This document shows positions 3,575-51,187 of a stretch of 52,261 nt of DNA, one piece after another. Source of the DNA: a virus (Duplodnaviria > Caudoviricetes); IMG/VR virus record IMGVR_UViG_3300005804_000108, positions 1 through 52,261 of that record, one strand, 5' to 3'. Position 1 is the stretch's first letter, and the number at the start of each line of letters is the position of its first letter. The notes under the pieces are model-generated. The model was not told where the DNA came from. It made no database searches and worked only from the letters and a program-made list of their open reading frames with translations. The position numbers were made by a program, and so were the translations under genes.

Positions 3575-3639
3575 TTTGGTGCTTCAGTGTTAATGTTGGA
3601 CAATATGTATATCATAAATTCACATAAGTCAACAAAAAT

Positions 3640-8867: not shown

Positions 8868-11800
8868 CTACGTCCGAGCCACAGGCATGCCGATTTCATT
8901 CCATTCATCCAAAATCTTCGCGTTGCTTGCCGTCTCTTTTGTGTTTTTGTTGATTTGAGTCATGAGCGCCCGCAATGCTCTGAACTCAGCAATCAGTTCA
9001 GAATTGTCGCCGCCGATCATTTTCTTACTATCGGCATTGCTGTAAATCCGACTTGGTCCTGTAAATTCAATTTCCGGCCCGTTTTCTCCGACGATACGCC
9101 AGCCGCCGGCAAACGATCCACCGTCGGCATAGCCTTTAACCGCCCGCAAATAATCCTGCATTGTCGCATAGTCGGATTCCTTCAGGTTTCCTCTCGCGTC
9201 CTCGATGTATTTGTAATAGGCGTCTGCCGTTTCAGCGAGCGCCAGCAAGGCATAATAAGTCGCCTGCCCCTGTTCTGTTTGCAGCAATCCGGCCTGTTCG
9301 ACCAAGGATCTGTAATCTGCCCGTTCCCCGGGGAGCGTGTATCCGTATAGCCCCAGGGCATCAGATAAAGACGATTCTCTGTTCGCTTGTTTCTCCGCGT
9401 CGGAGAAAAACGCATCGTAGTATGTCTGAAATGCGTCGGTCAGGTCCTCAAGACTTCCGGCAACATTGATCAGCGATTCAGAAAACTTAATCAACTGCGA
9501 CGTTGTTCCGTCGAAGGCCTGATTGGTGTATTCCAGAATATGCAGAACAGAATTTTTATCGAGGACAAGGCGGACAGCGGTTTCAAGCAGGCCTTCATTC
9601 AGATGCTGATACTGGCTGATAATTCCGCCAAACAGCTTTTCTGCCGCTTCATCACCAATCTTGGAAAAATATTCCTGGAGAGTGTCATTCATTTCCTCTC
9701 CGGTCATTCCGGCCAAATTGATCTTTGCCTCTTCAAATGCGTAGTTGAGAGCGTTTTCTGTGTCGGTCCCGAACTGGTTAGCCAGCTCAAGCAGAGTGGA
9801 ACCCATATTCATATAAACCAGGTTGAACATCCGCTGGACATCGCCATCCAGCTCTTTGTAAATCGTTTCGTAGTCATATGAATCCGACCGCCAGAATTCC
9901 GTTGATGTCCGCTTTGTGATATCCTGATAGGCCCGGCTGTTCACGCCCGTCCCGGCAAGAAGATCACGTACAGTCGATTTCCCAAGCGAAATTCCCGAAC
10001 CGGTTGACCAGATTTCTTGTCCGCCGCCAAAGATGTCATTGAAGGAATGAGACAAGAATTGCGTGATATTTTCAGAGAGCTTATCCTGTCCGCCGATCCA
10101 TGGAGTGTAGAGCATGCCGAAAGAGCCCTGAAGGATGGTTACAAATGCTTCAGAAAATCCTTTAAATGACGTTTCAAGAAGATCCTGAAGCTCTGTGGAA
10201 AAGAAACCCGAAACAGAATCCAGGCCGTTATAGCTGCCGGTCCGGAGAATGCTGGTTACAAGGCCTGAAATATTATCATTCAAGTCGCGCAGTTCGTCAT
10301 AGATCTTCGAAAGTTTTACGTCTTCCAGGTCGTAGGTATCCTGCAGGAGTTCCAGCGATTTCGTGACGGACTCACTTCCGGTTCCGTATTCCGCGCCTAA
10401 AACCGTGCTGTTTCCCATGGCGGGCGTTGTAACAGCTGATGCAGCGCCGCCCTGCGAGCTGAATGACGCGCCAATCTGCGATAGATAGGCAGCCACCATT
10501 GCGGCGACGGCCGCTCCGCGGACAACTGCCGTGTATCCGTCGCCGCTGGCCATGGCGTTCATGACGGCTTTCACGCCGAGTATGACGGCTTGTGCGGTCT
10601 CTATTCCTTTTGCCGCCAGACTAAAAGCCAGAGCGGCTTTATGATATTGTTCCTGCTGTTTTGACCCATCCGCGTAAAGGCCGCTGATATTTTCCAGGGT
10701 TGACGATACGTCGTTGAGCGTTCCTTTCCATGGTTCGGCATAGCGCTTGAAACCGGCGATAATTTTTTCCTGAGTGGCCCAGGCATCCGCGGCAGCTTCA
10801 CCGTACATTTTCTTCCGGATCTCACGCTCTTTCTCTATATAGTCGATTTTCATCTCGTATGTTTTTTCTTCGTATCCCTCTATTTCACTGTAGAATTGAG
10901 CCGCATCACGAATTGTATCGTTATATAAGTTCTCATAGGACGCACCGCCTGCTTTTTCATATTTTTTCAATATTTCATCGATATCGTATTGAGCAGCCGA
11001 ACGAATCAGGCCAGATGCATCCGGGCCGATTTTTTCAAAATGCTTTAGAAGCTTGTTTGTTTCTGTCTCTACTTTTACCAGGTCCTGTTCTACGTCCAAA
11101 AGCCCCGTTGCCTCTACCTTTCCTTCCAGCGTTATCTTTGTTTGCTCCCATTGTTTTTGCAGGCGCTCCGCTTCCCTGGCGGCTTCATCCGATGCTTTTT
11201 TTGCAGCAATCGAATTCGCAAGGGCTGCTTTCTCTGCCTTGACTTTTGCTTCCGCAGCCGCAATAATAGACTTGGATGCTTTTTGCTCCGCATCAACCAT
11301 GCCGGCTACATTATCACCCGCCTTGGCTCTTAGATCAGATGCCGAAGCTAATAGATCTTTGGCAGTTTGAGCCGTTGCCGCAGCAATTTTTCTGATATTA
11401 TCCGCTTCCTCCTTTCCACCGAGCTTTTCTTTAACAAAGGCCTGAAATTCTTCCATGTAACTAATCAGGTGGGCAAAACCGCCCGCAGCGGTAAGCACAC
11501 CAGAGGCAAGCCATTGCATGACGCCAAAGGCTTTTTGGAATGCGCCAACTAACCACTTTCCTACCGTCTCGGCGACCTCTTGCGCCTGTGTTTTAAAGCG
11601 CTGCATTGCTATGATGGCGCCGTCCTGTGTTCCTTGCAATTTCAGGGTTTTCAGCTCCAGATTGGCCATGGCTAAATTATAAAGAGACATCGAATCGGCT
11701 CCCGCCTCAACTGCCTGCTGAACAATTTTCATCTGATCTTTTGTAATGGCTCCGTACTGAACCATGGCCTTACCGTTTTTGTTGGCTATTGCATCGGATA

Positions 11801-12257
11801 GTCCATCAAACGTCTCTGCAACAGTTGCCCCCATGTACCGTGACGCCGTGATGACATTTGCGGAAAAGCGCTCAATCTGCTTTTCGTCGTACCCTTGCAG
11901 CATGAGCTTAACGGCTTTTTGCATGATGGCCGAATCATCGACGGTTTCTTTCATCGCACGCTTCATATTGTCTACCATGGCGTCGGCATTTATGTTTGAT
12001 TGTTCCGCTATGATTTTATACGACGATTCACTCGCCATCGCCCGCGCGCCCTCTTCCATCAGCTTCACGGCAGACATAGTAGCGGCTGATACGATGCCGA
12101 TCGCGGCTGTCGCTTTCAGCCAGTTACTCTTCATCGAAGACACGACGGCGGATGTTGCGCTTCCCGTCTTTTCCGTTTCTTCGCGGACAGTTTTAAACCC
12201 GGTTACAGCGCCGGAGGCATCGGTGGTAATGCGTATTTTAACTTCCTTGTCTGCCAT
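8868..12257 (-). CDS. Tail tape measure protein
   Basis: 1129 aa, Ala-rich helical; N-term VKIRITTDASG; C-term GYADGG...VGENGPE. Confidence 0.9.
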   Translation of the reverse strand: MADKEVKIRITTDASGAVTGFKTVREETEKTGSATSAVVSSMKSNWLKATAAIGIVSAATMSAVKLMEEGARAMASESSYKIIAEQSNINADAMVDNMKRAMKETVDDSAIMQKAVKLMLQGYDEKQIERFSANVITASRYMGATVAETFDGLSDAIANKNGKAMVQYGAITKDQMKIVQQAVEAGADSMSLYNLAMANLELKTLKLQGTQDGAIIAMQRFKTQAQEVAETVGKWLVGAFQKAFGVMQWLASGVLTAAGGFAHLISYMEEFQAFVKEKLGGKEEADNIRKIAAATAQTAKDLLASASDLRAKAGDNVAGMVDAEQKASKSIIAAAEAKVKAEKAALANSIAAKKASDEAAREAERLQKQWEQTKITLEGKVEATGLLDVEQDLVKVETETNKLLKHFEKIGPDASGLIRSAAQYDIDEILKKYEKAGGASYENLYNDTIRDAAQFYSEIEGYEEKTYEMKIDYIEKEREIRKKMYGEAAADAWATQEKIIAGFKRYAEPWKGTLNDVSSTLENISGLYADGSKQQEQYHKAALAFSLAAKGIETAQAVILGVKAVMNAMASGDGYTAVVRGAAVAAMVAAYLSQIGASFSSQGGAASAVTTPAMGNSTVLGAEYGTGSESVTKSLELLQDTYDLEDVKLSKIYDELRDLNDNISGLVTSILRTGSYNGLDSVSGFFSTELQDLLETSFKGFSEAFVTILQGSFGMLYTPWIGGQDKLSENITQFLSHSFNDIFGGGQEIWSTGSGISLGKSTVRDLLAGTGVNSRAYQDITKRTSTEFWRSDSYDYETIYKELDGDVQRMFNLVYMNMGSTLLELANQFGTDTENALNYAFEEAKINLAGMTGEEMNDTLQEYFSKIGDEAAEKLFGGIISQYQHLNEGLLETAVRLVLDKNSVLHILEYTNQAFDGTTSQLIKFSESLINVAGSLEDLTDAFQTYYDAFFSDAEKQANRESSLSDALGLYGYTLPGERADYRSLVEQAGLLQTEQGQATYYALLALAETADAYYKYIEDARGNLKESDYATMQDYLRAVKGYADGGSFAGGWRIVGENGPEIEFTGPSRIYSNADSKKMIGGDNSELIAEFRALRALMTQINKNTKETASNAKILDEWNEIGMPVART

Positions 12258-30058: not shown

Positions 30059-30364
30059 TTATTTCCTTATCTTAATTTCATAACCACTTGTTGTTCTCTG
30101 GCACATTAAAAGAACATCACCATCTGCTGCACGATTTTCAGAAAGATTTTTTGCATTGATCCAGATTCCAAAACTTTCATTCAGAGCTGCATCTTTGGGA
30201 ATAATAGCTTTTCCCAGTTCCGATATTGAATTACGGAAATCAATCTGTACTCGGGATAGCTTTCGCTCTGCTTCTGTAACGCTTCGCGATAATTCATCCC
30301 AATTTCTAACCAATTCTGATATTTTCCTCGATTCATCGCCCATATCTTTTCCCCTTCTGATCAC
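30059..30364 (-). CDS. Hypothetical protein
   Basis: ORF; start overlaps the duplicated dnaN stop. Confidence 0.5.
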   Translation of the reverse strand: MIRRGKDMGDESRKISELVRNWDELSRSVTEAERKLSRVQIDFRNSISELGKAIIPKDAALNESFGIWINAKNLSENRAADGDVLLMCQRTTSGYEIKIRK

Positions 30365-30720
30365 CCCTTCAGCGGCATGACGATGCCCAAACCGGAGGGA
30401 ATGTTTAACACAGCTTTATTATTTTGGTGGCGGAGGTGGCATATATTCCGGTCTTCCTGGAATCCAGACCCCGCTCAAGGCATAATCATCAGCTGCATCT
30501 TTTGTCGGACAACACTCAGCACAGACATATTTCCAATGTCCACTACCGCCATAAAAAGGACCCACCAGAAATCGCCACCCCTTTTCTCGTCTAAATTCTT
30601 TTTTACATTTTTCGCACAGATGCCACGCAAACAATGAAAACACCTTATAAATTTCGTATTCATCGTTTCTAATGTGTTTCCGTTTCACATTTCACCCCTT
30701 CAGCGGCATGACAATGCCCA
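30361..30720. repeat. 29-bp direct repeat (28/29) duplicating the dnaN 3' end
   Basis: TCACCCCTTCAGCGGCATGAC(G/A)ATGCCCA at 30361-30389 and 30692-30720. Confidence 0.9.
30419..30688 (-). CDS. Small zinc-finger hypothetical protein
   Basis: CEKC...CAECC; lies between the 29-bp repeats. Confidence 0.55.
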   Translation of the reverse strand: MKRKHIRNDEYEIYKVFSLFAWHLCEKCKKEFRREKGWRFLVGPFYGGSGHWKYVCAECCPTKDAADDYALSGVWIPGRPEYMPPPPPK

Positions 30721-37361: not shown

Positions 37362-38147
37362 TTACTTTGCTGTCTTGATTGCATCATCCATGGCCTCATT
37401 GAAGTTGTTGCAAAGATTGCGATCGATTACTTTTTGCGCTGTTTCGTAAAATGGGAATCTCTTTTGATACGATGGTTCTTTGACGAACATCATAATCGGC
37501 TTTATGGCGCTTCCGGCAGCGAATCCAACTCGTTTATAGATACCAGGTCGAAGATGCTGCTTTCGTCCGAACCATTCACCCTTTCCCTTTGACACAAAGT
37601 ATTCATACCCGAGCTTTTTCTTAGATCCACGTTTCAACGATGCCTTGCGTTGGTCTGTGATGTTTGCCCGATATCCCTGTTCACCGAACGCTCTGAAGTA
37701 TGAAAGGATTTGAACGATGAAACTTCCAGGGATATTCCCGTACGCGTCCAGCTGGCATGCCTCACCAGGCGCAACATACATACCTGCAGGCAATACACCG
37801 ATGCGTCTCAGCGCCGATTCGAACCGCTTCAAGTTGCGCTTTCCGCCTTCTACCTGTGGCTGAATATAGTTGGCAGCTGGATTACCTTTACCAACTCCGG
37901 ATCGATCCTTGAAGTATACCATCGATGTCAGATCCTTTTTTGTCGCTGGTTTTACATATAGGCTGTTCTGTGTGTAAGGAGTAGGACGATCAAGATAGGA
38001 TGGCATTTGTTTTATCTCTGCCTCTTTGACATCCTGGGCTGTTTTGGTGAGCGCCTTGGCCAGTGCAAACGGCATCTGGTTTTTTTCCAGGTCCGTCATC
38101 ATTGATTGCAGTTCTTTCAAGCCTTTGAATTCGATCTTGATATCCAT
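37362..38147 (-). CDS. Minor tail protein Z-like
   Basis: QMPFALAKALTKTAQ, LDRPTPYT, LDAYGNI, RFPFYE. Confidence 0.7.
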   Translation of the reverse strand: MDIKIEFKGLKELQSMMTDLEKNQMPFALAKALTKTAQDVKEAEIKQMPSYLDRPTPYTQNSLYVKPATKKDLTSMVYFKDRSGVGKGNPAANYIQPQVEGGKRNLKRFESALRRIGVLPAGMYVAPGEACQLDAYGNIPGSFIVQILSYFRAFGEQGYRANITDQRKASLKRGSKKKLGYEYFVSKGKGEWFGRKQHLRPGIYKRVGFAAGSAIKPIMMFVKEPSYQKRFPFYETAQKVIDRNLCNNFNEAMDDAIKTAK

Positions 38148-38272
38148 ACCGGTCCAGCCTCTGATATTCGAATTTGAAAAAGTCGCTCCACAGGGCATCC
38201 TCGCAAGGTGGATTTACCTGTGGCGCCGGCGTCCGATTGCCGTGTCCGGACGCCGGCTATGGCAGCAGCACA

Positions 38273-39505: not shown

Positions 39506-40365
39506 GGTAATTCATCGTGAGTCCTTCCATCCAGAAGGCGTCCGGCTTTTTTGCGTCCGATTTTCTTTATGTAACTCCCGCATTCAGGATCAAATTCAAG
39601 CCAATAATGACCGTTTGTATGATTGACGAATCCCTCTACTTTTTGACATCTTGCCGGTGCCCATTCACCCCACTGTTTAAAAAAGAACGGCACACCAGCC
39701 GCAGCGCATTGATCGCGGTCGGATCTGAAAATATTAGGATGTGACGGCCTTGCGCCTGATCCGGTTTCGCCGCCAGAAATAAGGCAATCAACAAGGCATA
39801 AACATTCGCCGTAAGAGATTCTTTCTAGTGCTGGTTCATGACTGACAAATTTTTTTCCAGGAACTTGCAGAAAAATATCTTTGTTTTTATCCCATTCTTG
39901 TTGATTGCAGACGGTCAGGCCGAAATAGATGTGCTTCGGCGATATCATTTCTTCTGCCGGATCGCCTCTTCGTGCGCTATTAAAGCGGTTTAATAAGACC
40001 TGCGGCCTTTTTGTCAGCAATAAATATGTATGATAAATATTAATCATCATTGCTTTTGCGGCAGATGAATAGAAGTCATCCGAAACACTTTCACGAAAAA
40101 GGTCATGCCGAACCGCAAACACGGTCGGCTTTTTCTTGTTGAACCGGGAAAGGCGGTCAGAGTGAGTTATAATATTGCCATTAAATTGTCCTATCTTCGG
40201 CCATTCTGTGTTGGTCAATTTACCTTCTAAAAATCTTTTGCGACTGTAAAATCTGTGTCTCTGTGCCGCGCTCCAACAATGAGCACAGCCCGGAGAGCAA
40301 GGAGCGCAGCCGTCTACGAGCGTGATTCCTTCATCCCAGTATCTGCCTTTTTCGATGTTGATCAT
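39490..40365 (-). CDS. DUF5131 / Gp37Gp68-family protein
   Basis: GCAPCSPGCAHCW, DLF, LLTKRP, SHEPAL, GGETG..ARP, FFFKQWGEW, GRLLDGR. Confidence 0.85.
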   Translation of the reverse strand: MINIEKGRYWDEGITLVDGCAPCSPGCAHCWSAAQRHRFYSRKRFLEGKLTNTEWPKIGQFNGNIITHSDRLSRFNKKKPTVFAVRHDLFRESVSDDFYSSAAKAMMINIYHTYLLLTKRPQVLLNRFNSARRGDPAEEMISPKHIYFGLTVCNQQEWDKNKDIFLQVPGKKFVSHEPALERISYGECLCLVDCLISGGETGSGARPSHPNIFRSDRDQCAAAGVPFFFKQWGEWAPARCQKVEGFVNHTNGHYWLEFDPECGSYIKKIGRKKAGRLLDGRTHDELPWRKS

Positions 40366-40514
40366 TGCTGCCACCAAAATATAACATTTTGCATTGTCCG
40401 GAGGACGTCCTGGATCTCAGGGCGGTGTGACACCCACAAAAACGGAGCAATCGGGATGAAAAAAGCTAATGCCAGGCATGATATTCGAAGCGTTTCATGA
40501 TATAGTTTTTTCAT
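40362..40514 (-). CDS. Small membrane protein (50 aa), first gene inside the right att
   Basis: MKKLYHETLRISCLALAFFIPIAPFLWV...; ATGA overlap with DUF5131. Confidence 0.5.
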   Translation of the reverse strand: MKKLYHETLRISCLALAFFIPIAPFLWVSHRPEIQDVLRTMQNVIFWWQQ

Positions 40515-40608
40515 TCGTCCCCCGCGGATAAAAATAGACACGTTGGCCCAGGGCCAAAAATAAGTGATTTAATTTTAATGATTTAGAATGCTTAAAAAAG
40601 GGACACTA

Positions 40609-40654
40609 ATTCGTAATCAGTAGGTCACCAGTTCAAATCTGGTCATCGGCTCCA
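40609..40654 (+). repeat. att site copy 1: 3' half of tRNA-Thr(CGT)
   Basis: ATTCGTAATCAGTAGGTCACCAGTTCAAATCTGGTCATCGGCTCCA: CGT anticodon loop, T-arm, acceptor strand, CCA; no 5' half upstream. Confidence 0.92.
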
Positions 40655-40657
40655 TAA

Positions 40658-40718
40658 AATCAAGTAGTTACATGATTCGTCTTTTTTTGCATGATCTTCA
40701 TGTAGCCTTTATGTAGCC
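40658..40718 (+). promoter_or_regulatory. IHF site and integrase arm-type sites (satellite left end)
   Basis: AATCAAGTAGTTA matches WATCAANNNNTTR; ATGTAGCC at 40700 and 40711. Confidence 0.65.
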
Positions 40719-40866
40719 ATAAAAATGGTAAATGTTGCGTGAAATTGTTTATTAAATAAAACCCCACAGCCGATATGGTTATACAGAGATTGCAACTTGA
40801 CTTTTAGTCAAAGATTGGTTTATTAGTAACAAGGAGCGACGAAAGCCATTTGAGGAGGCCGGAGTC

Positions 40867-41445
40867 ATGAGTCAGATAGAATCAAAAAAAATCATTCAAT
40901 CAATTTGTTATATACTTAGAGGAATTAAAAGGGCCAATAAATTAAAGCTCGTTAAATTACTTTATCTCTCAGACAAATACCATATCATAAATTATGGTCG
41001 TACGGTAACTGGAGACGAATATTGGGCAATGGATTATGGTCCTGTTGGTTCTACGGCGAAAGATATTCTTAGTATGGATAAAGATTTTTTATCCATAGAA
41101 TATGAAGAAGCATCTAAATTTCTGAAGAAAAAAGGAGACCATGATTTCGTAATAGGTGAAACTTGCTCTGATGACGATTTGGACTTGCTATCTGATACAG
41201 ACAAAGAGGCAATTGACTTTGTACTAAAAAAATTTGGGGAATTTTCTTCGGGTGATCTCATTAACTATACACATAAATATCCTGAATGGGCTCAATATGA
41301 AGAAATTTTCAAAAACAAACTCAGTAAACGGCAACGTATTGGCACAGAGGAACTTCTGTCTCTCCTTGAAGATGATATTATAAAAATACCAGATAACAAT
41401 AAAATAGCAGAATCAAAAGAAATACACACAGGGATGTTTTCTTAA
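40867..41445 (+). CDS. Panacea-domain (DUF4065/SocA-like) antitoxin
   Basis: KLKLVKLLYLSD...YGRTVTGDEYWAMDYGPV...LINYTHKYPEW. Confidence 0.85.
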   Translation: MSQIESKKIIQSICYILRGIKRANKLKLVKLLYLSDKYHIINYGRTVTGDEYWAMDYGPVGSTAKDILSMDKDFLSIEYEEASKFLKKKGDHDFVIGETCSDDDLDLLSDTDKEAIDFVLKKFGEFSSGDLINYTHKYPEWAQYEEIFKNKLSKRQRIGTEELLSLLEDDIIKIPDNNKIAESKEIHTGMFS

Positions 41446-41448
41446 TAA

Positions 41449-41904
41449 ATGGATCTTCCGCCTAGTTTAATCCTTGGCTCCATTAGTGATTTTTGTGTTC
41501 TCTTTTTTAAGGACAAAAATCATGACAAAGATGCTCCGCCCCATTTTCATATAGTTTTTCCAGTTAGTGATGACGCAGGTTTGATTGTCACAATCATCAC
41601 AAGCCAGATTGATAAAAGAAGAAAATATTATAGCGATAAAGAAGCAGCACTACATTCACTTGTTGGCATAAACAATGACGTTTTTGAGTTCCTGAAACAA
41701 AAAAGTATTATTGATTGCAATCATGCTGAATTATTAACCAAATCTGAATTGATTAATAGGATTGATCGCAGTCATGAGTGGCATATTAAATCCCGTAAAA
41801 TACCATTATTTTTAAAAAGAGAAGTCTGCGCAGCAATCAAAGGAAGTCCATTAATTTCGCCATATGTTAAAAAATTAGTAAAAGAAGTTCTCAAGTCATT
41901 ATAG
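41449..41904 (+). CDS. Putative toxin, PemK/MazF-like fold
   Basis: PHFHIV, IITSQ, FLKQKSIIDCN; 3 bp after the antitoxin. Confidence 0.55.
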   Translation: MDLPPSLILGSISDFCVLFFKDKNHDKDAPPHFHIVFPVSDDAGLIVTIITSQIDKRRKYYSDKEAALHSLVGINNDVFEFLKQKSIIDCNHAELLTKSELINRIDRSHEWHIKSRKIPLFLKREVCAAIKGSPLISPYVKKLVKEVLKSL

Positions 41905-41943
41905 AAATTATTGATTATAATTAAGTTTGCTTGCGTCGATTCA

Positions 41944-41971
41944 GAAAAAGGCGGGCAAACCCCGCCTTTTT
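41944..41971. terminator. Bidirectional terminator
   Basis: AAAAAGGCGGG-CAAAC-CCCGCCTTTTT between convergent genes. Confidence 0.8.
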
Positions 41972-41993
41972 CGTTTCAATCCGAAACATGGTT

Positions 41994-42272
41994 TTATGCC
42001 GTCGTTGACTGCTTCTCTTCGCCGATTAATGATTCTAGGTCTTCAGTTATGTCTCGATTCCATTCTATGACCTCGCTCAAAAGTGTTTTTACGCCTAAAT
42101 AAAGCATGGCGGGATCTTCCGGATCATTATAACCATCGCATCCCGGTGGGACGGCGAAAAGTTCCAGAAGGATGCCCAATTTATAACGGCTCATATCAAG
42201 CTTTTCATATATGACAGACATACGTGTTGGCATATCTTTAATCGTTTCTGTTATATTATTTCCCCCGCTCAT
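41994..42272 (-). CDS. Hypothetical protein
   Basis: GGAGG SD; ATGA overlap. Confidence 0.6.
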   Translation of the reverse strand: MSGGNNITETIKDMPTRMSVIYEKLDMSRYKLGILLELFAVPPGCDGYNDPEDPAMLYLGVKTLLSEVIEWNRDITEDLESLIGEEKQSTTA

Positions 42273-42685
42273 GCCGTCACCTCCGGATTATTGTTTTGTT
42301 CCTTCTGCCATTTCTTAAATTCATCGGAAATTAAATCATCGGCTGTGAAGGTTTTCGTTTTTTGAGGCGGCTTATAAAGACCGCCCTTTAAAACAGTCAG
42401 TCGTTCAATTCTTTTACGGGATGAATTGACAATGGCTTTTGCCCTTTTGGTTTTCTCAGCTTGAAATATATCGTGAATTTCTTGAATTTTATTTCTTGCC
42501 TCTTTGCTTCTACAAATTGCCATATTAACATCAGATTTTATTTCTTCCGGCGTCCACTCTTTATCTGCATTTCTCTTGATACTACTCAGCATAATAAATA
42601 TATCTGTGTCTAAATTTTCTAAAATTCCACCAACCTGTTCATATAAAGCTTGTTGATTAATAAAAACATCAGATTTTGTTCCCAT
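42269..42685 (-). CDS. Hypothetical helical protein downstream of C4-like RNA
   Basis: GGAGG SD; helical composition. Confidence 0.6.
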   Translation of the reverse strand: MGTKSDVFINQQALYEQVGGILENLDTDIFIMLSSIKRNADKEWTPEEIKSDVNMAICRSKEARNKIQEIHDIFQAEKTKRAKAIVNSSRKRIERLTVLKGGLYKPPQKTKTFTADDLISDEFKKWQKEQNNNPEVTA

Positions 42686-42713
42686 AATTTCTTCGCCTCC
42701 ATAAACAAAAAGA

Positions 42714-42776
42714 GGTCATGGAACGCTTACGCTCAAATAAAGCGCCCGGCCCTTACGGGTTACGGATTCCATGACC
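42714..42776 (-). ncRNA. C4-like antisense RNA
   Basis: 10-bp closing stem GGTCATGGAA/TTCCATGACC, inner CCC-GTAA-GGG and GCGCT/AGCGT hairpins; segments complementary to upstream leader 42824-42844. Confidence 0.55.
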
Positions 42777-42847
42777 AGATTTAAGTTTACGCCACAAACA
42801 AAAATAGCCACTATCGGGTGACCTCCGTATTAGATTTAAGCATACTC

Positions 42848-42875
42848 AGAATAATCTTTTTATCCAGGAATGCAA
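42848..42875 (-). promoter_or_regulatory. Sigma70-like promoter for the C4-like leader
   Basis: TTGCAT-N16-TATTCT. Confidence 0.45.
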
Positions 42876-42994
42876 GTATTTTTTGTTTGACAAAACCCTC
42901 GGTCGAAGAGTAACTTGTGTAAAATGAAATCCATAAGCAATTGAAACTCCATGTTTAACTTAATTATCCTAGCTTTTTGCTTTGCCCCGCCCTT

Positions 42995-43022
42995 TGGCCC
43001 GCCGATGAACGGCGGGCTTTTT
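42995..43022 (+). terminator. Rho-independent terminator
   Basis: GCCCGCCG-ATGAA-CGGCGGGC-TTTTT. Confidence 0.7.
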
Positions 43023-43041
43023 ACAATCTTAGAAAAGATAT

Positions 43042-44463
43042 TTACAGTCCTCCGGGCATCGCATATCCGATTTTCGTATCAGCAGCGACCGATCCGCTTG
43101 TTTTTGTATTTGCCTTTGTCCCGGGGGGAGCATTTTTAAACTCTACCGAAACGCTCACCTGACCTTTGGCTGGCTGATTTCCATATGGACTCCCCAGCAT
43201 AGGATTATCTTCAGAAAGCATCTTTCGGGCGCGGGTAAGATACTTTTGCGTTTCCGAGGGTAATACAGCCATGTTTTTACCGGATTTCAAAAACTTATTC
43301 GCTACCCCCGGCCCTGCGTTATAGGCAACTGATACAGCTTCCATGTCGCCATTGTATTTTTTTAAAAGGCTGTCTAAAATCGTGCTCGCAACAATCTGAT
43401 TGTAGGCAGGTTCAAATAACCTTGAAGAATCAAATCCATATTGCTTCGCCGTTCCCGGCATTATCTGGTATACGCCAATAGCCCCTTTAGGCGATACAGA
43501 GTTCAGCTTACTTCCCTCAAGACGCCTAATAATCCCCAACTGTCTTGATGGAGCTTGAACGGATTTATCTGCCGGTGCCGGACCGATGCCTTTTGCCAAT
43601 AAATCAAACGCCGGAATAAGCATAGGAGCCGCCCATGCGCCAATGCTGTATTTTAAACCTGTCCATGACTCATCAAGTCTTTCCACCGACTTGCGGTATT
43701 TTTCAGCCGCTTGAATGGCCGGGCCCCCCATGACAAGACCTGATTTTCTTACCTCTTCAGACAGCGCAGCAATCTCTGATTTCCCCTTATTCATAAGGAT
43801 TATCATTGACGGGTCAATCCCCAGCATGCCCAATACCGTCTCTTTTGTCTGGACAGGCATTTTTGATTTATTCATCGCATCGACTAAATCAAGAAACGCG
43901 GTTTCTGTATCGACTGTTCCGTCCTTTAACCGTTTTATGGGAACATTAAGACGAATAAGGGCATCTCTTGCTGTATTATTCCTTCCTTGTGTTGCATGTT
44001 GTAATGTAAGACCAAATGAATGAAAACTCGCAGTCAATGCGTCGGATGAAATACCCACAAGCTTGGCTACTCCGCGATAAAGCTGAAGCTTGTCCGTTGA
44101 TATTCCTATGAGCGTGCTTGTTCGGTAAATCTCGGACCCTACGTTTCCCCACTTCTCAGCCAGCGTATTGGCCGTAACGATTACCGCCGCTGCTCCTGCG
44201 GCTAATCCACCGGCCATAGACCCTTTGGGGAACAACGAAATAAGATTAAAAAATGAATCGTGAGCGTCGCTGACGGAGTTTTTGAAACGTATGAAGGTTT
44301 TACCGACCTGGTCGAAATCAAGAGACTTTTTCATCGCCACCGATGATTTATTAACCTCATTCATCGGCTTGACTGATTTGCCGACTACAGCATTTACCTT
44401 ATTTACGATCGCAGAGGCTTTATCTTTGGCGGTTATTAATATTTGAAAATTGTTGTTTGGCAT
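43042..44463 (-). CDS. Short tape-measure-like protein with lytic transglycosylase (SLT) domain
   Basis: N-term FQILITAKDKAS; TMP-like ISTDKLQ, LLNKG-like segments; SLT motifs LEG...SPKGAIGVYQIMP...AYNAGPG...ETQKY; C-term VSVEFKNAPPG. Confidence 0.8.
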   Translation of the reverse strand: MPNNNFQILITAKDKASAIVNKVNAVVGKSVKPMNEVNKSSVAMKKSLDFDQVGKTFIRFKNSVSDAHDSFFNLISLFPKGSMAGGLAAGAAAVIVTANTLAEKWGNVGSEIYRTSTLIGISTDKLQLYRGVAKLVGISSDALTASFHSFGLTLQHATQGRNNTARDALIRLNVPIKRLKDGTVDTETAFLDLVDAMNKSKMPVQTKETVLGMLGIDPSMIILMNKGKSEIAALSEEVRKSGLVMGGPAIQAAEKYRKSVERLDESWTGLKYSIGAWAAPMLIPAFDLLAKGIGPAPADKSVQAPSRQLGIIRRLEGSKLNSVSPKGAIGVYQIMPGTAKQYGFDSSRLFEPAYNQIVASTILDSLLKKYNGDMEAVSVAYNAGPGVANKFLKSGKNMAVLPSETQKYLTRARKMLSEDNPMLGSPYGNQPAKGQVSVSVEFKNAPPGTKANTKTSGSVAADTKIGYAMPGGL

Positions 44464-44473
44464 GTCCTCCTCC

Positions 44474-45070
44474 CTAATCAACGATCCCGTATTCAGTTAA
44501 AAAGTCATTCAGTGCATCACAAATGGCATCCCTTAAGATTGCCGCCGCTTGCGCAGGTTCCTTGCAATTCGCCAACCTGATCGCATACTCGCTGGGGATT
44601 GCCAGCAATTTATTCCGGAGCCCCAGGCATCTGGTCGAATTTATCCTTTCAACCTCATCGGCATCGAGAAGCTTCCCTTCTCGAAGGTCGGCGTCCCATT
44701 TGGCTTGCTTCTTTTCCAGTTCGGCAAGTAAAACCTGCTGCGCCCGGTAAAGGCGGTCAAGTTCAGCCTTTGGCTTTCCGAATATTCCACCAGTCGTCGG
44801 AATGCTGTCTTCCGGTTTTTGGTTGTCTGGTTTACTATCCGGTTTACTTTTTGGTTTACTCTCCGGTTTACTTTTAAAACCCTGCCCATCTGAACGAGGG
44901 GCGCTCCGATATTTTTCTAGGTTTTTATCGCTTGCCTCAACATCGACCAAACGGCCATCCAGAACGAGAAGACCGCGCTTTTGCCATTTGTTAACGGCCA
45001 TCTTTGAAACGCCATGTCGCTTGGCATATGCGGTCTGTGTTTCTAGTAATTTACTCATTTTTTGTTTCAC
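44474..45070 (-). CDS. Terminase small subunit (Nu1-like) of the satellite
   Basis: HTH TQTAYAKRHGVSKMAVNKWQKRG..VDVEASD; REGKLLDADEV...LRNKLLAIPS...ICDAL. Confidence 0.8.
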   Translation of the reverse strand: MKQKMSKLLETQTAYAKRHGVSKMAVNKWQKRGLLVLDGRLVDVEASDKNLEKYRSAPRSDGQGFKSKPESKPKSKPDSKPDNQKPEDSIPTTGGIFGKPKAELDRLYRAQQVLLAELEKKQAKWDADLREGKLLDADEVERINSTRCLGLRNKLLAIPSEYAIRLANCKEPAQAAAILRDAICDALNDFLTEYGIVD

Positions 45071-45110
45071 CGAGTAAACCGAGTAAACCGAGTAAACCTA
45101 TTTTGTAAAC
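44829..45110. repeat. GGTTTACT repeats: four in terS (12-bp period) and three inverted upstream (9-bp period)
   Basis: GGTTTACT at 44829, 44841, 44853, 44865; AGTAAACC at 45073, 45082, 45091; partial GTAAAC at 45105. Confidence 0.85.
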
Positions 45111-45119
45111 TCTAATATC

Positions 45120-45180
45120 TGGTAAAATATCGAGGCGCGCAACTGCCCCTATGGTTTTGTGTATGGCACAGGACCCGACA
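45120..45180 (-). other. Candidate cos/packaging site of the satellite
   Basis: Minus strand GGGTCCTGTG...GCGCGCCTCGAT in the intergenic region directly upstream of terS and its repeats. Confidence 0.45.
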
Positions 45181-45199
45181 CTTTATCCGTTACCTCTTC

Positions 45200-45231
45200 A
45201 AAAAGAGCGGCCCGTTATGAGTCGAGCCGCC
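45200..45231 (-). terminator. Rho-independent terminator after the Sid-like gene
   Basis: Minus strand GCGGCTCG...CGGGCCGC-TCTTTTT. Confidence 0.6.
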
Positions 45232-45282
45232 CCCAAGAGCTTCCTCACAATGGATACCTCATCGCGAAGAAGGGAGATTGCT

Positions 45283-45849
45283 TTACCGTTGAGGAAGAAA
45301 TTCTTCAATAAGCCGCGCCTTATCTTCTGTTAAATCCGGATGGCTTCCCTGGAAAAAAATCTGAACCAGGCGCGAGCCGAGTTCGTCAGCGAAAAGTAGA
45401 CGGCCGCCCAGCTGTTGTGCGGCCAACGTCTTGCGCAAAGAGTCACCGACCGCTTTTTTTGCTTTTTCAGAAAATTCCGATGAGACCATACTCCAGAAAA
45501 GCTTGCGTTGCATCATTACCTGTCTTTGCAGCTCGGCCACCTCTTCTCTGAAATGCTGTTCAACCGACAAGCAAGACTCACCGATCGCCCTCAGGTCTCC
45601 GACCTCATTTTCGGCTTCATGAACTTTACCGCGAGCAGTTTTAACATCCGTCGGATTGCAGCTTCCTTCAGCGATTCCGCGAACAGCATCTTCGACGGCC
45701 TTCCTTAACTCAACGAGATTTGCCTCCGCTTTCAGAAGCTTTTCGCCATTCTCCGTTGCCGCCTGGCAAACGCTCGCCAATCGTTCCAAACTCACCTTTA
45801 AAGTCGTCTCTAATTCCTCAACTTTTCCCGCCGCGTCTTTGATTTTCAT
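45283..45849 (-). CDS. Coiled-coil protein, Sid/Psu-like candidate
   Basis: 188 aa from ATG 45849 (AAGGAG SD); long heptad helices; family is an inference. Confidence 0.5.
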   Translation of the reverse strand: MKIKDAAGKVEELETTLKVSLERLASVCQAATENGEKLLKAEANLVELRKAVEDAVRGIAEGSCNPTDVKTARGKVHEAENEVGDLRAIGESCLSVEQHFREEVAELQRQVMMQRKLFWSMVSSEFSEKAKKAVGDSLRKTLAAQQLGGRLLFADELGSRLVQIFFQGSHPDLTEDKARLIEEFLPQR

Positions 45850-45890
45850 AAAAATCATTTCTCCTTTTTTTGAAATCCGGCATTCACCGG

Positions 45891-46067
45891 TTATTTGTTT
45901 TTTCCTTTTTTTTGAAAAATCCTGTCCCAGTCCGCATCGATTTTCGCCCGTCTTTGCCGTGTCTTCTGCCCCTGGGCGTGCGCGAAGGCTCGATCCCACG
46001 ATGCTGCAATTTTTCGATCATTAAGCCCCTTTCCGAGATGCGTAAAATCATGACCATTGCTCTTCAT
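45891..46067 (-). CDS. 58-aa protein with duplicated WDR(A/I)F motif (candidate mini-scaffold)
   Basis: AAGGAG SD, ATG 46067: MKSNGHDFTHLG...IAASWDRAFAHA...IDADWDRIFQKK. Confidence 0.55.
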   Translation of the reverse strand: MKSNGHDFTHLGKGLNDRKIAASWDRAFAHAQGQKTRQRRAKIDADWDRIFQKKGKNK

Positions 46068-46186
46068 TTTGCTTTCTCCTTTAATTTTTGGATTTGACCG
46101 TTTCTTTTCGTTTGGTTTCACTTTAACTTTCTGTTTCCTGTCGCGAACCGATACCCATTTCGACTCAACCGATGCACTTGAAATAA

Positions 46187-47527
46187 TCATTCCCTTCTCT
46201 CCCTCCACCCCGGCGTCTCCATATCCTTAAAGCTCTGCGTTGCCGCATTGAACCGAAGCTTTATTGTTCCGGTTGGTCCGTTGCGGTGTTTTGCGATTTC
46301 GATTTCTACAATTCCCCGGTTCGGATTGTCTTGCCGCTTATCATAGAGTTCGTCCCGGTAGATAAAGGCGATGATGTCGGCATCCTGTTCGATGGCGCCG
46401 GACTCCCGGAGATCGGAAAGCATGGGGCGCTTATCTGCGCGGCTGTCCACCTGCCGGTTGAGCTGTGAAAGGCCAATGACAGGAATATTCAGTTCGCGGG
46501 CAATGGCTTTGAGCGTCCGGCTGATTTCAGCCACGGCCTGCTCCCGGGTGTCGTGCTTTCCTGGCACACGGACAAGTTGAATGTAGTCGACAATGAGAAG
46601 GCCCAATCCGTGTTCGGTTTTCAACTGCCTTGCCTTGGCCCGGATTGCAGTCGGCGTGATGTCGACCTGGTCATCGATGAAAAGTGGAGCCTGCCCGATA
46701 GTCTGGACGGCTTCGATAACCGTTCCCCATTGCGAATTATGAACATAGCCGCGCCGGAGCTGCCGGGAATTGATGTTGGTCATATTCGCAAAGAAGCGGA
46801 GCATGATAGATTCAGCGGGCATTTCGAGGGAAAATATGACTGTGGGTGTTTCGTGCAACGCGGCATATTTTGCAATGTGGCCGGCAACTGCGCTTTTTCC
46901 CATCCCGGGGCGTCCGGCAATGATGATCAGACCACCATCAGGAAGCCCGCCGGTGATTTCGTCAAGGTCCGTCATTCCCGTGGCCGTACCTGTAACGATG
47001 TCGCCGCCGCGTTTATAGGAATCTTCGATCTGGTGCAGTGTGGTTTTTGCAACATCCCGAGCTGCCCGGATTGTGCTTTTGTGGCGCTCGATTGAAAGCT
47101 TCTGGGCTATCGAAATTGCTTCTTCAGCCTGACCGGAATAAACCGCCTCCGTCATCATATTTGCCGTTTCGATGATCCGGCGCTCATTGGCCTTGTCTTT
47201 TACGATCTCGGCATAATGCCGGGCGTTTGACGCCGAAATAACGCTGTCAGTTAATTCGGCAATATATGGCGCACCCCCGGATTTATCCAAAAGCCCGGCG
47301 TTTCGTAAATCATTTGATACAGTCAAGAGGTCGGCGGCACCGCCTCTGTCAGTTAAGCGGATGATTGACTCGAATATACATCTATTACCTTTACTGTAAA
47401 AATCGTCTTTAGTGAGAATTTCAGACGATTCCGAAACTGTCTTATTATCGCATAACATGGCCCCCAAAACGGCTTTTTCGGCATTTTCGTTATGAGGCAT
47501 TACTCGACGGGTATCAGCGTCAATCAT
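46187..47527 (-). CDS. dnaB: Replicative DNA helicase
   Basis: PHNENAEKAVLG, GRPGMGKS, FSLEM, VDYIQL, LSQLNR, RPMLSDLRESGAIEQDAD, KHRNGPTG. Confidence 0.95.
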   Translation of the reverse strand: MIDADTRRVMPHNENAEKAVLGAMLCDNKTVSESSEILTKDDFYSKGNRCIFESIIRLTDRGGAADLLTVSNDLRNAGLLDKSGGAPYIAELTDSVISASNARHYAEIVKDKANERRIIETANMMTEAVYSGQAEEAISIAQKLSIERHKSTIRAARDVAKTTLHQIEDSYKRGGDIVTGTATGMTDLDEITGGLPDGGLIIIAGRPGMGKSAVAGHIAKYAALHETPTVIFSLEMPAESIMLRFFANMTNINSRQLRRGYVHNSQWGTVIEAVQTIGQAPLFIDDQVDITPTAIRAKARQLKTEHGLGLLIVDYIQLVRVPGKHDTREQAVAEISRTLKAIARELNIPVIGLSQLNRQVDSRADKRPMLSDLRESGAIEQDADIIAFIYRDELYDKRQDNPNRGIVEIEIAKHRNGPTGTIKLRFNAATQSFKDMETPGWRERRE

Positions 47528-48338
47528 ATGCGCGAGCCTCCATTGCACAGTAAACGCATCCAGTGTGTGTCAAGTCAGATTTGACGACAATTCGACGGCC
47601 GCACCTTGAGCACACATAAACTTCCGGATCTTGCCGGGAAGGTTGAATGGCCGGTTCTGGTTTTCCGTTCCGGATGATACCCAAAAGATACTTTTCGTCT
47701 TTACCCTGAGAGGCGTAATCTTTGGCCAGATACGTTTTGATTCCTGACATAACCTGATCTGCCGGGTATTTCTTCCACTGGTGAAGGATGTTCAGTTTTA
47801 CACTGTCGGAAATGCGATTTGTCTTCCTGATGGATGATATGGCCGTGAATGCCTGATTGATTATTTCCTGGTCTTGATAACGCTCTTTTAAAACGGAAAT
47901 TTCAGATAAAATATTTTCAGGGGTTCTTTTATTTATAAAAGAACATTCTTTAATTCTTGTATGTGGACCTTTGTTGGTCATTTGCTGGTCGCTTTGCTGG
48001 TCGTTTTCATCTTCGCGCGATTGGTAAGTGTGCCAATTTACAATAGTTATAATTGAAAATTTGTTGGTCGTTTTGATGGTCAAATTTCCGCACTTTATCA
48101 GAAATGCAATAATAGTGCGGATTTCACGCTCTGTCAGTCCGGTTTCCTGGGCTGCTTTTTGTCTACCAAAGACAAATTGACCTGGCATGAGGTGAACTAC
48201 TTGCAGGCCAACAATCGCGTCAAATTCCTTGTAGCTGGCCTTCAGTAGACACCATGACCAGAACGCCCACAGCTTATGATTTCTGAGCCAACCGGAATCA
48301 AGGGTTTTACGCCATATATGAACGAAACCACGGTTCAT
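47520..48338 (-). CDS. Phage replication initiator (lambda O / replisome organizer-like)
   Basis: GFVHIWRK...LLKAS...PGQFVFGR...TTNKFSIITIVNWHTYQ; internal iterons. Confidence 0.8.
   Translation of the reverse strand: MNRGFVHIWRKTLDSGWLRNHKLWAFWSWCLLKASYKEFDAIVGLQVVHLMPGQFVFGRQKAAQETGLTEREIRTIIAFLIKCGNLTIKTTNKFSIITIVNWHTYQSREDENDQQSDQQMTNKGPHTRIKECSFINKRTPENILSEISVLKERYQDQEIINQAFTAISSIRKTNRISDSVKLNILHQWKKYPADQVMSGIKTYLAKDYASQGKDEKYLLGIIRNGKPEPAIQPSRQDPEVYVCSRCGRRIVVKSDLTHTGCVYCAMEARAYD
47881..48081. other. Satellite replication origin (iterons plus AT-rich tract inside rep)
   Basis: TTGHTGGTC at 47971, 47982, 47994, 48061, 48073 next to AT-rich 47881-47960. Confidence 0.65.
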
Positions 48339-48553
48339 TTACGAGCCCCTCCCAACTGATAGGCTCGCGGATCCGGAAAACGCGCCGTCATAAGTCGCTG
48401 AATCTCTTCTTCTGGAAACGGCCACGATAATTTGACCCGTCCATTTTTATCGGCCAGTTCAGCCAGCAAAAGAAACACATTCGCCGCCGACGGGTCCTTT
48501 CGGAAAATTCGGTTGTACTCGCGCCGGAATTGTCGGTTAGGTGTAAAAATCAT
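48335..48553 (-). CDS. Hypothetical protein
   Basis: Coupled between AlpA-like and rep genes. Confidence 0.6.
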   Translation of the reverse strand: MIFTPNRQFRREYNRIFRKDPSAANVFLLLAELADKNGRVKLSWPFPEEEIQRLMTARFPDPRAYQLGGARK

Positions 48554-48742
48554 CTACTTACCCGCCTGTCCCCCCCCTAAAAGTTTCTCAACTTCACTGG
48601 CCGGCCAGAGCAAGCGACGGTTCGGAAGTTTCAAAGGCCGTAAACCAAAGTAAGCGCCTTTGACACAATAACCTCGCCTGATTGTGCCGGGATCGACCTT
48701 AAGCAATGCAGCTAGCTCTTTCGTATCGTATGTCTTGTTCAT
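48554..48742 (-). CDS. AlpA/excisionase-like DNA-binding protein
   Basis: TKELAALLKVDPGTIRRGYC...PLKLPNRRLLWP. Confidence 0.75.
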   Translation of the reverse strand: MNKTYDTKELAALLKVDPGTIRRGYCVKGAYFGLRPLKLPNRRLLWPASEVEKLLGGGQAGK

Positions 48743-48792
48743 TTCAAACCTCCATCGTTAGATGTGTAATTCCATCTTGTTCATTTGAAGGA

Positions 48793-48823
48793 AGTTTACA
48801 GAAGTCGCTTAAGCGACAGTCAA
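48793..48823 (-). promoter_or_regulatory. Promoter with 19-bp spacer containing a 14-bp palindrome
   Basis: TTGACT-N19-TAAACT; GTCGCTTAAGCGAC at 48804-48817. Confidence 0.6.
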
Positions 48824-48838
48824 GGAACAAAATCACAT

Positions 48839-48862
48839 AAAAAAAGCCGGACATAATCCGGC
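48839..48862 (-). terminator. Rho-independent terminator
   Basis: Minus strand GCCGGA-TTATG-TCCGGC-TTTTTTT. Confidence 0.7.
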
Positions 48863-48943
48863 AAATATCTTTTCTTATTAAATGATTAAATGATTATTTC
48901 TGTTTGTCGCGGGCGCGACAATGGCGCGACAATTTACGACACT

Positions 48944-49543
48944 TTATGAGTTTTCTATCAATTTTTTACCCTTGTTGATAAGACGTTGTCCGCGTTGTTT
49001 TATCGTTTTGTGCTGATTTTTGTTAAGATCATCAGCCAGATTTAATTTTAGTGCAATTTCTTTGGCGCTTAAATCATATTTCAAGTTAAGCTCGCACGCA
49101 ATCAATTCATCGGGCGTGCCCTTATCCTGCTGCCTTTTTACAAATTCTTCCGGTGTCAATGATAACATTTTAATATCTTCGAGTTGAAAAAATAGACCGG
49201 CAAATACTTTATTTATCATCTGTTGATTTAGCGCCGGCACATCCTCCCGTTGAAGGCCGATCTCTAGTAAAAGCATCGCTCGGCCTACACCGCCCCCGAA
49301 CGGCGGTATTCGTAAAATATTTTTTTTCACCATAATTTTTCTAACGTCGGGAAGCTCCAAGAATGTAGCGTAGCGTTCGTCTTCCAGAAGTTCATCGACA
49401 TTTGTTGAAATGAATGCGTTGTTGCGGCACTCGTATGCATTTAACTTTTCCTCCCGAATAAAAGCAAATAGATCGCCTTGACTCAAGCCGGATTTTTCTG
49501 CCGCATCAGCATAGCTGATGAAGTTATCGTCTGATAATTCCAT
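48944..49543 (-). CDS. Putative regulator with two HTH-like regions
   Basis: N-term ISYADAAEKSGLS...IREEKLNA; C-term LSAKEIALKLNL; lies between int and alpA. Confidence 0.55.
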   Translation of the reverse strand: MELSDDNFISYADAAEKSGLSQGDLFAFIREEKLNAYECRNNAFISTNVDELLEDERYATFLELPDVRKIMVKKNILRIPPFGGGVGRAMLLLEIGLQREDVPALNQQMINKVFAGLFFQLEDIKMLSLTPEEFVKRQQDKGTPDELIACELNLKYDLSAKEIALKLNLADDLNKNQHKTIKQRGQRLINKGKKLIENS

Positions 49544-49573
49544 TATGTTTTCACCTTCCTCAGTATCTTGATT

Positions 49574-50881: not shown

Positions 50882-51066
50882 GTAGCCAACTCCTGTCAGT
50901 AGATGGTTTTTTATGTGGCCACTTAGTCAGTAGGTTTCATGTAGCCACCATGTAGCCACTTTCTTACAATATCGTTCAATATAAGTCAATATGTGAAATG
51001 CAGTACAGAAGCGATATAGAAGCTATTTTGGCTGGCTACACAATGCGCTTCAATGTGCTTCAATAT
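50880..51066 (+). promoter_or_regulatory. Integrase arm-type sites and phased CAAT repeats (satellite right end)
   Basis: ATGTAGCC at 50880, 50939, 50950 (ATGTGGCC 50913); CAAT triads with 10-bp period at 50967/50977/50987 and 51041/51051/51061. Confidence 0.6.
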
Positions 51067-51078
51067 GGCGTTTTATTG

Positions 51079-51124
51079 ATTCGTAATCAGTAGGTCACCA
51101 GTTCAAATCTGGTCATCGGCTCCA
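51079..51124 (+). repeat. att site copy 2: 3' half of tRNA-Thr(CGT)
   Basis: Identical to 40609-40654; no 5' half upstream. Confidence 0.92.
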
Positions 51125-51187
51125 GAATTCAAGTACTTACATCATCATTAAAATATCAAAGAACAGTAAAATTTGCCCTAAATTGCC

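Follow-up and report, generated by a model that had tools for sequence, protein, structure and literature searches.

The window analysed here is the whole of a 52,261-nucleotide (nt) viral record (Duplodnaviria, Caudoviricetes; IMG/VR record IMGVR_UViG_3300005804_000108). Towards its right end, two direct repeats bound a predicted satellite-like element of 10.47 kb, in which the small terminase gene terS is followed directly by a gene for a 473-amino-acid (aa) tape measure protein (TMP) carrying an SLT lytic transglycosylase domain (TMP-SLT). An earlier note, made from the letters of the sequence, had proposed that a satellite places this protein into the tails of a helper phage. The gene, its relatives, its coupling to terS and the element that carries it are described below, followed by the readings that they permit.

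The TMP-SLT gene and its product

The gene occupies an uninterrupted 1,422-nt frame for 473 aa on the minus strand, from an ATG at 44463 to position 43042; the opposite (plus) frame across 43042-44463 is riddled with stops, which assigns the gene to the minus strand. The motif GGAGG lies immediately 5′ of the ATG at 44463, and residue 1 pairs with residue 1 of the homologues in alignment. An alternative in-frame TTG at 44481, which would add six residues, falls within the 3′ end of the preceding gene. That gene is terS (45070..44474, PHROG 57), and its stop is separated from the TMP start by 10 nt, just as the earlier note had described; a ribosome-binding site is present.

By homology, the protein is built in three parts. 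The first resembles TMP N-terminal regions, with residues 3-282 assigned to PHROG 2276 ('tail length tape measure protein', E 1.6e-30). The second is the SLT lytic transglycosylase domain, recognised by the Pfam SLT family PF01464 at residues 321-395 (53.5 bits, where the cut-off is 21.3; E 2.1e-14) and by PHROG 2013 ('lytic tail protein', E 1.1e-27) at residues 321-417. The third is a C-terminus conserved among TMPs. E316 is aligned to the ES-motif Glu of the solved Slt structure 6fbt_A, which we take to be the catalytic residue, and the corresponding motif of TMP-SLT is E-G-S, identical in all close relatives. Columns invariant between TMP-SLT and its relatives are found in all three parts (F6, I8, I10, D14, E316, S318, Y381, N382, G384, P446, G448, and P470), and the conserved C-terminal segment includes, in addition, the invariant V436-V440 (V436, V438, and V440), N444, and I465. 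The family 1 SLT domain is intact as judged from these residues, with a predicted transglycosylase activity. The matches to PHROG 2276 and PF01464, together with the invariant residues, uphold the earlier description of a 473-aa protein with TMP-style termini and intact SLT motifs.

Relatives and tail type

An exhaustive search of representatives returned 18,751 proteins at a threshold of E<=1e-3, of which 91 reach E<=1e-30. The best non-self match in a set of 5.8 billion proteins (P0003, 769 aa) is 38% identical to TMP-SLT; the two are alike in their first and last residues, and P0003 has ~300 additional central residues. Identity to four close relatives amounts to 33-40% in the N-terminal region, 55-64% in the SLT domain, and 36-63% in the C-terminus (residues 433-473). 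Three of these four are located in tail clusters, two of them at loci L002 and L082, and P0003 is without a placed context. Among solved structures, 9b45_a ('gp41 Tape measure protein') is matched at E 1e-11 by a profile built from TMP-SLT and the four relatives.

A scan of viral contigs with TMP-SLT gave 139 relatives, among the best 80 of which nine match from N- to C-terminus. All nine are preceded by genes for ~490-500 and ~122 aa and followed by genes for ~480 and ~360 aa, as judged from open reading frame (ORF) sizes. Matches to PHROGs and Pfam identify neighbours of the relatives as sheath, tube, a Phage_TAC_7 chaperone, DNA_circ_N, GpP, Mu_Gp45, GP46, Baseplate_J, and Mu_Gp48. Among 7,488 ORFs from 166 fetched loci, 12 share the TMP N-terminal region at E<=1e-5 and represent 11 distinct sequences. 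For ten of these, a gene for a Mu-type sheath lies upstream at a distance of 804-982 nt. The same ten sit between the chaperone and hub genes, 3′ of sheath and tube; the satellite gene, in contrast, stands after terS. The eleventh (L083, identical to L086) is without a sheath and has terS 10 nt away.

The TMP-SLTs of Mu-like contractile tails at four loci (L002, L056, L067, and L082) are 38-45% identical to the satellite protein and have a matching three-part layout; they share with it the E-x-S, YQIMP, and YNxGPG motifs and the C-terminal strand motif, and differ from it in the placement of the gene. By sequence comparison, the 473-aa protein is a true homologue of these TMPs. Since ten of eleven distinct relatives lie inside Mu-like contractile tail clusters, beside a Mu-type sheath, the resemblance to TMPs of Mu-like tails that the earlier note had offered was correct. 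That note had also named non-virion transglycosylases as a possible class of homologue; the homologues are virion tail proteins and not housekeeping transglycosylases. A TMP-profile scan of a 401-genome Desulfobacterota sample returned almost exclusively housekeeping SLT proteins.

Length of the satellite TMP

The earlier note had called the tape measure short; for its family, the length is not unusual. Relatives of 587-769 aa contain a strongly hydrophobic central block (~residues 316-433), and the satellite TMP is without it. The 519-aa TMP of locus L082, however, belongs to a complete tail cluster of the Mu-like type in a Desulfobulbus metagenome-assembled genome (MAG) and is also without this block, its one hydrophobic stretch being a conserved N-terminal one at residues 73-91. 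A 468-aa TMP-SLT is found in the tail of an E217-like myovirus, and further short members of 441-526 aa occur in the set checked by BLASTP. Among the 149 proteins of that set, 48 span the N-terminal and SLT regions (441-884 aa) and 15 of the 48 have <=530 aa, a count to be read with the caveat that a long single alignment can satisfy the SLT criterion without a genuine SLT domain. A relative of the 524-aa protein P0104 lies 3′ of sheath and tube genes. Single-protein scans with P0119 and P0104 gave one locus each, and sheath and tube are upstream at L200. The middle region is not conserved in an alignment of eight short-form TMPs.

Compared with its family, a length of 473 aa is at the short end of the natural range and within it. 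An altered tail length is possible and is not implied by this length; a shorter tail would be expected only if the TMP of the true helper belongs to the long forms. In that case, the difference of 160-300 residues might correspond to ~17-32 nm, scaled by the 95 residues for ~10 nm of tail reported for PLEs (PMC12987554).

terS and its coupling to TMP-SLT

Relatives of the satellite terS product (33%, 30%, and 25% identity) are present in three of five records that carry a related TMP, an indication that both genes come from one phage lineage. In 19 of 24 viral-contig phage loci with this terS type, a 655-678-aa ORF starts at the end of terS and is followed by ORFs of ~95 and ~550 aa. The order and size of these ORFs are read as a lambda-like packaging module; the family matches concerned are to a gene of this window for the terminase and to genes of other loci for the portal. 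A TMP-profile match within 6 kb of terS was found in none of the 24.

The pairing seen in the satellite recurs in an otherwise unrelated element (L083) of a proteobacterial MAG, where a gap of 10 nt separates a 587-aa TMP-SLT gene from the PHROG 57 terS that comes after it. Small unknown ORFs lie nearby, as does a gene for a head decoration protein of the lambda gpD kind (L083:868-1491 and 2238-4571 for TMP-SLT, terS, and this gene together); the element borders host genes and is cut by the contig end. TMP and terS are the sole genes that it has in common with the satellite, in reversed order. No Mu-type sheath was found anywhere in this MAG, and none of sixty relatives of its genome carries a copy of its TMP.

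The terS region is also marked by a short repeat, GGTTTACT, of which the window holds eight copies, seven of them at terS (Table 1), compared with 0.77 expected by chance; eight copies were reached in 0 of 100 shuffles. The array upstream of terS is a candidate pac site or operator. At a related phage locus (L166), four copies of GGGTAACA lie around the terS start. Upstream of terS in two related phage loci is a gene matching PHROG 1924 ('minor tail protein'), at L216:3213-3842 (141 nt away) and L221:1106-1804 (177 nt away), and similar-sized ORFs precede terS in about ten further phage loci. The PHROG 1924 gene of the window itself (37362-38198) sits among early/replication genes of the adjacent prophage, and the label 'minor tail protein' is probably wrong.

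The 10.47-kb element

The bounding 49-nt direct repeats are identical at 48 of 49 positions (98%) and lie 10,470 nt apart, at 40609-40657 and 51079-51127. The right copy is part of a tRNA-like Rfam match (51053-51116) that scores 21.6 bits, under the gathering score of 29, and ARAGORN finds no complete tRNA within the window. The P4-type integrase, which has an Arm-DNA-bind_3 domain, adjoins the right repeat, and all 14 ORFs examined between the repeats are open. These features suggest that 40609-51127 is a discrete integrative element, a satellite-like unit of the PICI kind with its own integrase and a DnaD-like/DnaB replication module.

Table 1. Features of the satellite-like element, in window coordinates.
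Feature	Position	Strand	Match or remark
Left 49-nt direct repeat, attachment (att) copy, tRNA 3′-half-like	40609..40657	+	Prophage/satellite junction
SocA/Panacea-domain protein, 192 aa	40867..41445	+	Pfam PF13274, E 4.6e-22; probable antitoxin-like cargo
Panacea partner ORF, 151 aa	41449..41904	+	Starts 3 nt after Panacea gene; no Pfam, PHROGs, NCBIfam, or PADLOC match
Overlapping ORF pair, 138 aa (42685..42269) and 92 aa (42272..41994)	41994..42685	-	Downstream of TMP; no family matches
TMP-SLT, 473 aa	43042..44463	-	PHROG 2276, PHROG 2013, and Pfam SLT
Small terminase terS, 198 aa, N-terminal HTH-like region	44474..45070	-	PHROG 57, E 2.7e-18
Four GGTTTACT copies, 12-nt spacing, inside terS, inverted orientation	44829..44872	+	Encode KSKP-type repeat on minus strand
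Three GGTTTACT copies, 9-nt start-to-start spacing	45073..45098	-	End 2 nt upstream of terS start
ORF of up to 238 aa, likely shorter via internal ATG	45283..45999	-	Heptad-like, coiled-coil-looking; no family match
DnaB-type replicative helicase, 453 aa	46187..47548	-	Pfam DnaB_C, E 1.2e-95; PHROG 19, E 4.4e-121
DnaD-like helicase loader/initiator, 272 aa	47520..48338	-	PHROG 2514, E 3.3e-26
HTH_17-like (AlpA/excisionase-type) protein, 62 aa	48554..48742	-	Pfam PF12728, E 1.9e-5
Protein adjoining integrase, 199 aa	48944..49543	-	No family match (Pfam, PHROGs, NCBIfam, PADLOC)
P4-type tyrosine integrase, 435 aa	49574..50881	-	Pfam PF13356, E 3.1e-12; PF00589, E 1.7e-8; PHROG 1
Right 49-nt direct repeat, att copy, anticodon loop CGU	51079..51127	+	Part of weak tRNA-like match

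Scans of ORFs of 60 aa or more with Pfam and PHROGs (14 proteins) and with NCBIfam (13 proteins) identified no gene for capsid, portal, large terminase, tube, sheath, hub, baseplate, or chaperone in the element. Eight unassigned proteins of the element were further compared by hhalign with a Phage_TAC_7-type chaperone profile, derived from five phage loci, and reached a probability of at most 0.9%; a held-out control chaperone scores 99.3%. These scans support the statement of the earlier note that no other tail gene is present. Its designation of the element as a satellite also stands, in the form satellite-like, given the att repeats, the integrase, the replicon, and the absence of capsid, portal, and large terminase genes in the same scans.

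The Panacea gene and its 151-aa partner, in a region of low GC (0.37) at the left end, are likely to be toxin-antitoxin or defence cargo; PADLOC finds no defence family above noise in the satellite. The Atlas model of the 138-aa protein is helical and yields no assignment. A 105-aa ORF overlaps the start of the 238-aa ORF, and a 72-aa ORF lies between the HTH_17-like and DnaD-like genes. In Gram-negative PICIs, an AlpA-type regulator is found beside the integrase. The LexA box CTGT-N8-ACAG, allowing one mismatch, does not occur in the satellite (11 in the window against 9.5 expected), and a promoter/terminator scan of the sequence gave results at chance level.

One DNA sequencing run, possibly from the source sample, contains this stretch, and no RNA run with it came up. 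Contigs of that run skip from 41971 to 42269 (with 22 other letters between), from 42343 to 42692, and from 42722 to 42834, which suggests that the element exists in variants that are not alike in the accessory region (92-aa/138-aa ORFs) 3′ of TMP. Contig depth is raised over 40329-42543.

The adjacent prophage and the proposed helper

The satellite shares the window with a prophage to its left and with part of another element to its right. The two flanking integrases (1-1059 and 51188-52249) share 55% identity, and neither is related to that of the satellite, as would suit a tandem array in which one att site is used throughout; prophage, satellite, and a third element appear to be lined up at a tRNA-like sequence. 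A 40.7-kb contig of the run extends through the prophage up to the left repeat and has, in addition, at least 65 letters fitting window positions ~51100-51165. A further att copy may lie directly left of the window.

The head genes of the prophage are lambda-like and its terminase is of the gpA type; an FII-like connector and a tail terminator are also present. A 422-aa protein (13189-14457), encoded between this terminator and the TMP gene, has Phage_tube_2 (PF18906) tubes as its nearest Atlas clusters (0.97, TM 0.97), and the TMP gene (12257..8868) is followed by only three more tail-region genes. This 1129-aa TMP is taken to lack an SLT domain because it has no Pfam match at E<=0.01, in agreement with the earlier note. 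The contrast which that note drew between the two TMPs is nevertheless uninformative, since the prophage has a tube of the Phage_tube_2 type, is without a Mu-type sheath, and resembles none of the satellite proteins. No Mu-type sheath family is present in the 52-kb window, the two TMPs share no similarity, and none of the 14 satellite proteins matches elsewhere in the window by tblastn. The adjacent prophage was considered as a tail donor and rejected on its tube type, the absence of a Mu-type sheath from the window, and the absence of shared proteins; its tail is non-contractile, and a tail-donor role is unlikely. A packaging role is possible. The neighbour's terminase belongs to the same broad family as one paired with this terS type, to which it is only 26% identical, and its 219-aa candidate terS reaches a probability of 1.1% against the terS profile, with no match by BLASTP. 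A 615-aa ORF of the prophage contains a 113-nt near-tandem repeat (84% identical; window 16545-16801), and the sliding-clamp gene carries at its 3′ end a 29-nt repeat (97% identical) with a distance of 331 nt between copies (30361-30720).

The relatives of terS and those of TMP-SLT, taken together, therefore point to one type of helper, which would be a phage combining a lambda-like packaging module with a Mu-like tail, and would not be the adjacent prophage.

Proposed role and alternatives

The anatomy of TMP-SLT, its homology, the genomic context of its relatives, and the boundaries of the element are established. By analogy with PLEs, the most likely mechanism is that the satellite TMP is incorporated into helper tails, a proposal to which we would give even chances. 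Induction of the helper, or infection by it, would lead to excision and replication of the satellite, and the satellite TerS would steer the lambda-gpA-type large terminase of the helper to satellite DNA. TMP-SLT would then be built into the Mu-like contractile tail of the helper, replacing the helper TMP or alongside it, with assembly relying on the chaperone, hub, tube, and sheath of the helper. In the finished particle, it would set the length of the tube, leave the tail first, and cut peptidoglycan through its SLT domain. Expression of the gene, incorporation of its product into particles, and effects on tail length or entry are steps that we infer.

The same conserved termini that would admit TMP-SLT to helper tail assembly could also make it an interference device, which competes with the helper TMP, yields defective or mis-sized tails, and lowers helper yield without serving satellite transfer. 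The missing central block of the longer relatives fits such a role, and tail assembly is a known target of satellites and defence, as reported for Rta (PMC12987554) and the Tai systems (PMC11364771). A block-less 519-aa TMP is, however, part of a complete Mu-like tail cluster, so the block-less form is probably functional; the satellite itself depends on working tails, its TMP gene is paired with terS, which has a role in transfer, and the PLE TMP, as reported, serves transfer (PMC12987554). Interference as the role of the protein therefore seems unlikely to us. We give equally little credence to a passenger or relic, a fragment that recombination would have taken from a helper-type phage and that the element does not use or has ceased to use. 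The element is a singleton with no close relatives found, satellites do recombine with their helpers, and neither a chaperone nor a hub accompanies the TMP; against this stand the intact 1,422-nt frame, the preservation of family-invariant residues in all three regions, the gene-precise junction with terS and its ribosome-binding site, and the recurrence of the same pairing in the unrelated element L083.

It might also be asked whether the unit is a satellite at all, or whether terS and TMP are leftovers in a decayed prophage remnant or other integrative island. Its content is partly cargo-like (the Panacea pair and unknown ORFs), its dependence on a helper is presumed, and its tRNA-like att is a partial match. 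We consider this possibility very unlikely, since decay is hard to reconcile with ten phage loci that have TMP behind the sheath and 24 terS loci of which none has TMP within 6 kb; a 10-nt terS-TMP junction would be unexpected from random decay, and the unit is compact, with 14 of 14 examined ORFs open and with its own integrase, replicon, and bounding repeats. A bolder extension of helper-tail incorporation, which we hold to be doubtful, is that terS and TMP-SLT form a portable two-gene hijack cassette that moves between otherwise unrelated satellites whose helpers have lambda-like packaging and Mu-like tails. The cassette would make a satellite independent of its helper in packaging specificity and also equip it with a private device for DNA entry; the block-less TMP might then admit satellite particles to cells that keep out the helper by TMP-directed superinfection exclusion or tail-targeting defences, and might shorten the tail.

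Several results weigh against the incorporation of TMP-SLT into helper tails by a satellite of this kind. No helper was identified within the 52-kb record, and no satellite-encoded chaperone or hub was found, unlike in PLEs, so that every further assembly factor would have to come from the helper. A gene that would adapt capsid size to a 10.5-kb genome was not recognised, and the 62-aa protein scores 25.3 bits for HTH_17, below the Pfam cut-off of 27. Contigs of one sequencing run, in which rare forms are invisible, contain no circular form or empty-site joint. Viral-contig scans with single proteins (TMP, terS, and the 238-aa protein) revealed no close relative of the element, and the best TMP relatives are 38-45% identical in the collections searched, in which conservation of the cassette within one satellite lineage is therefore not demonstrable.

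Significance

Manipulation of helper tails by satellites was shown by experiment only recently (2025-2026), in one Vibrio system. The element would extend this theme to an uncultured freshwater-sediment bacterium and to a different type of helper, one with a Mu-like contractile tail, as well as to a TMP bearing an enzymatic SLT domain and to a minimal set in which TMP alone is joined to terS. If the cassette reading is true, searches for terS+TMP as a signature could reveal a class of satellites which current finders, relying on capsid/packaging markers, may miss, and the benefit of a private TMP, whether in entry, exclusion escape, or tail length, could be addressed in a simpler gene set than that of PLEs.

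Comparison with known systems

SaPIs and PICIs are att-flanked elements of ~10-15 kb with an integrase, a replication module, and their own terS, which redirects helper packaging. To our knowledge, classical PICIs have not been described with tail genes. The element resembles them in outline and differs in that no capsid-remodelling or Ppi-like gene was recognised in it and in that its AlpA-type regulator is only tentatively assigned.

The closest parallel is provided by the PLEs of Vibrio cholerae (PLE11, PLE1, and PLE4), in which a TMP gene is accompanied by genes for a chaperone and a baseplate hub. As reported, the PLE TMP replaces that of ICP1 in virions, giving chimeric tails 10 nm shorter, and deletion of tmp lowers transduction by 96-99.9% (PMC12987554). 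The same authors (Mathur, Boyd and colleagues) note putative tmp genes in PLE-like elements and cf-PICIs and suggest a wider occurrence (PMC12987554). Like PLEs, the present satellite has a TMP of its own that would serve in a contractile helper tail. PLEs add a chaperone and hub, neither of which was found in this element, and their helper is the lytic phage ICP1, whereas a phage with a Mu-like tail would serve here. The satellite TMP carries an SLT domain, none being mentioned for the PLE TMP in the parts of the report available (PMC12987554), and it is joined to terS in a cassette, unlike the PLE TMPs, with which the comparison is one of published description.

Two further groups, each described in a preprint, approach the arrangement from different sides. 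SUSP1 satellites of the E. coli 'F5' family carry only a TMP and a baseplate protein (10.64898/2026.10.15.759431); like the present element, they are small and att-flanked, with structural genes confined to tail-module proteins that include a TMP, but they are defined by having no capsid/packaging marker and possess a baseplate gene, whereas the element here combines TMP with terS and has no baseplate gene. The EPIP satellites of Mycolicibacterium are reported to encode a TMP and a small terminase and are associated with longer tails (PMC12822802); they additionally carry head-tail adaptor, stopper, scaffold, and capsid genes and a serine integrase, and their host is an actinobacterium (PMC12822802). 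Searches of full-text literature, supplements and figures excepted, yielded no satellite described with terS and an SLT-bearing TMP as its sole virion genes. The concept of a satellite-encoded TMP is no longer new; the form that it takes here is TMP-only, SLT-bearing, and joined to terS.

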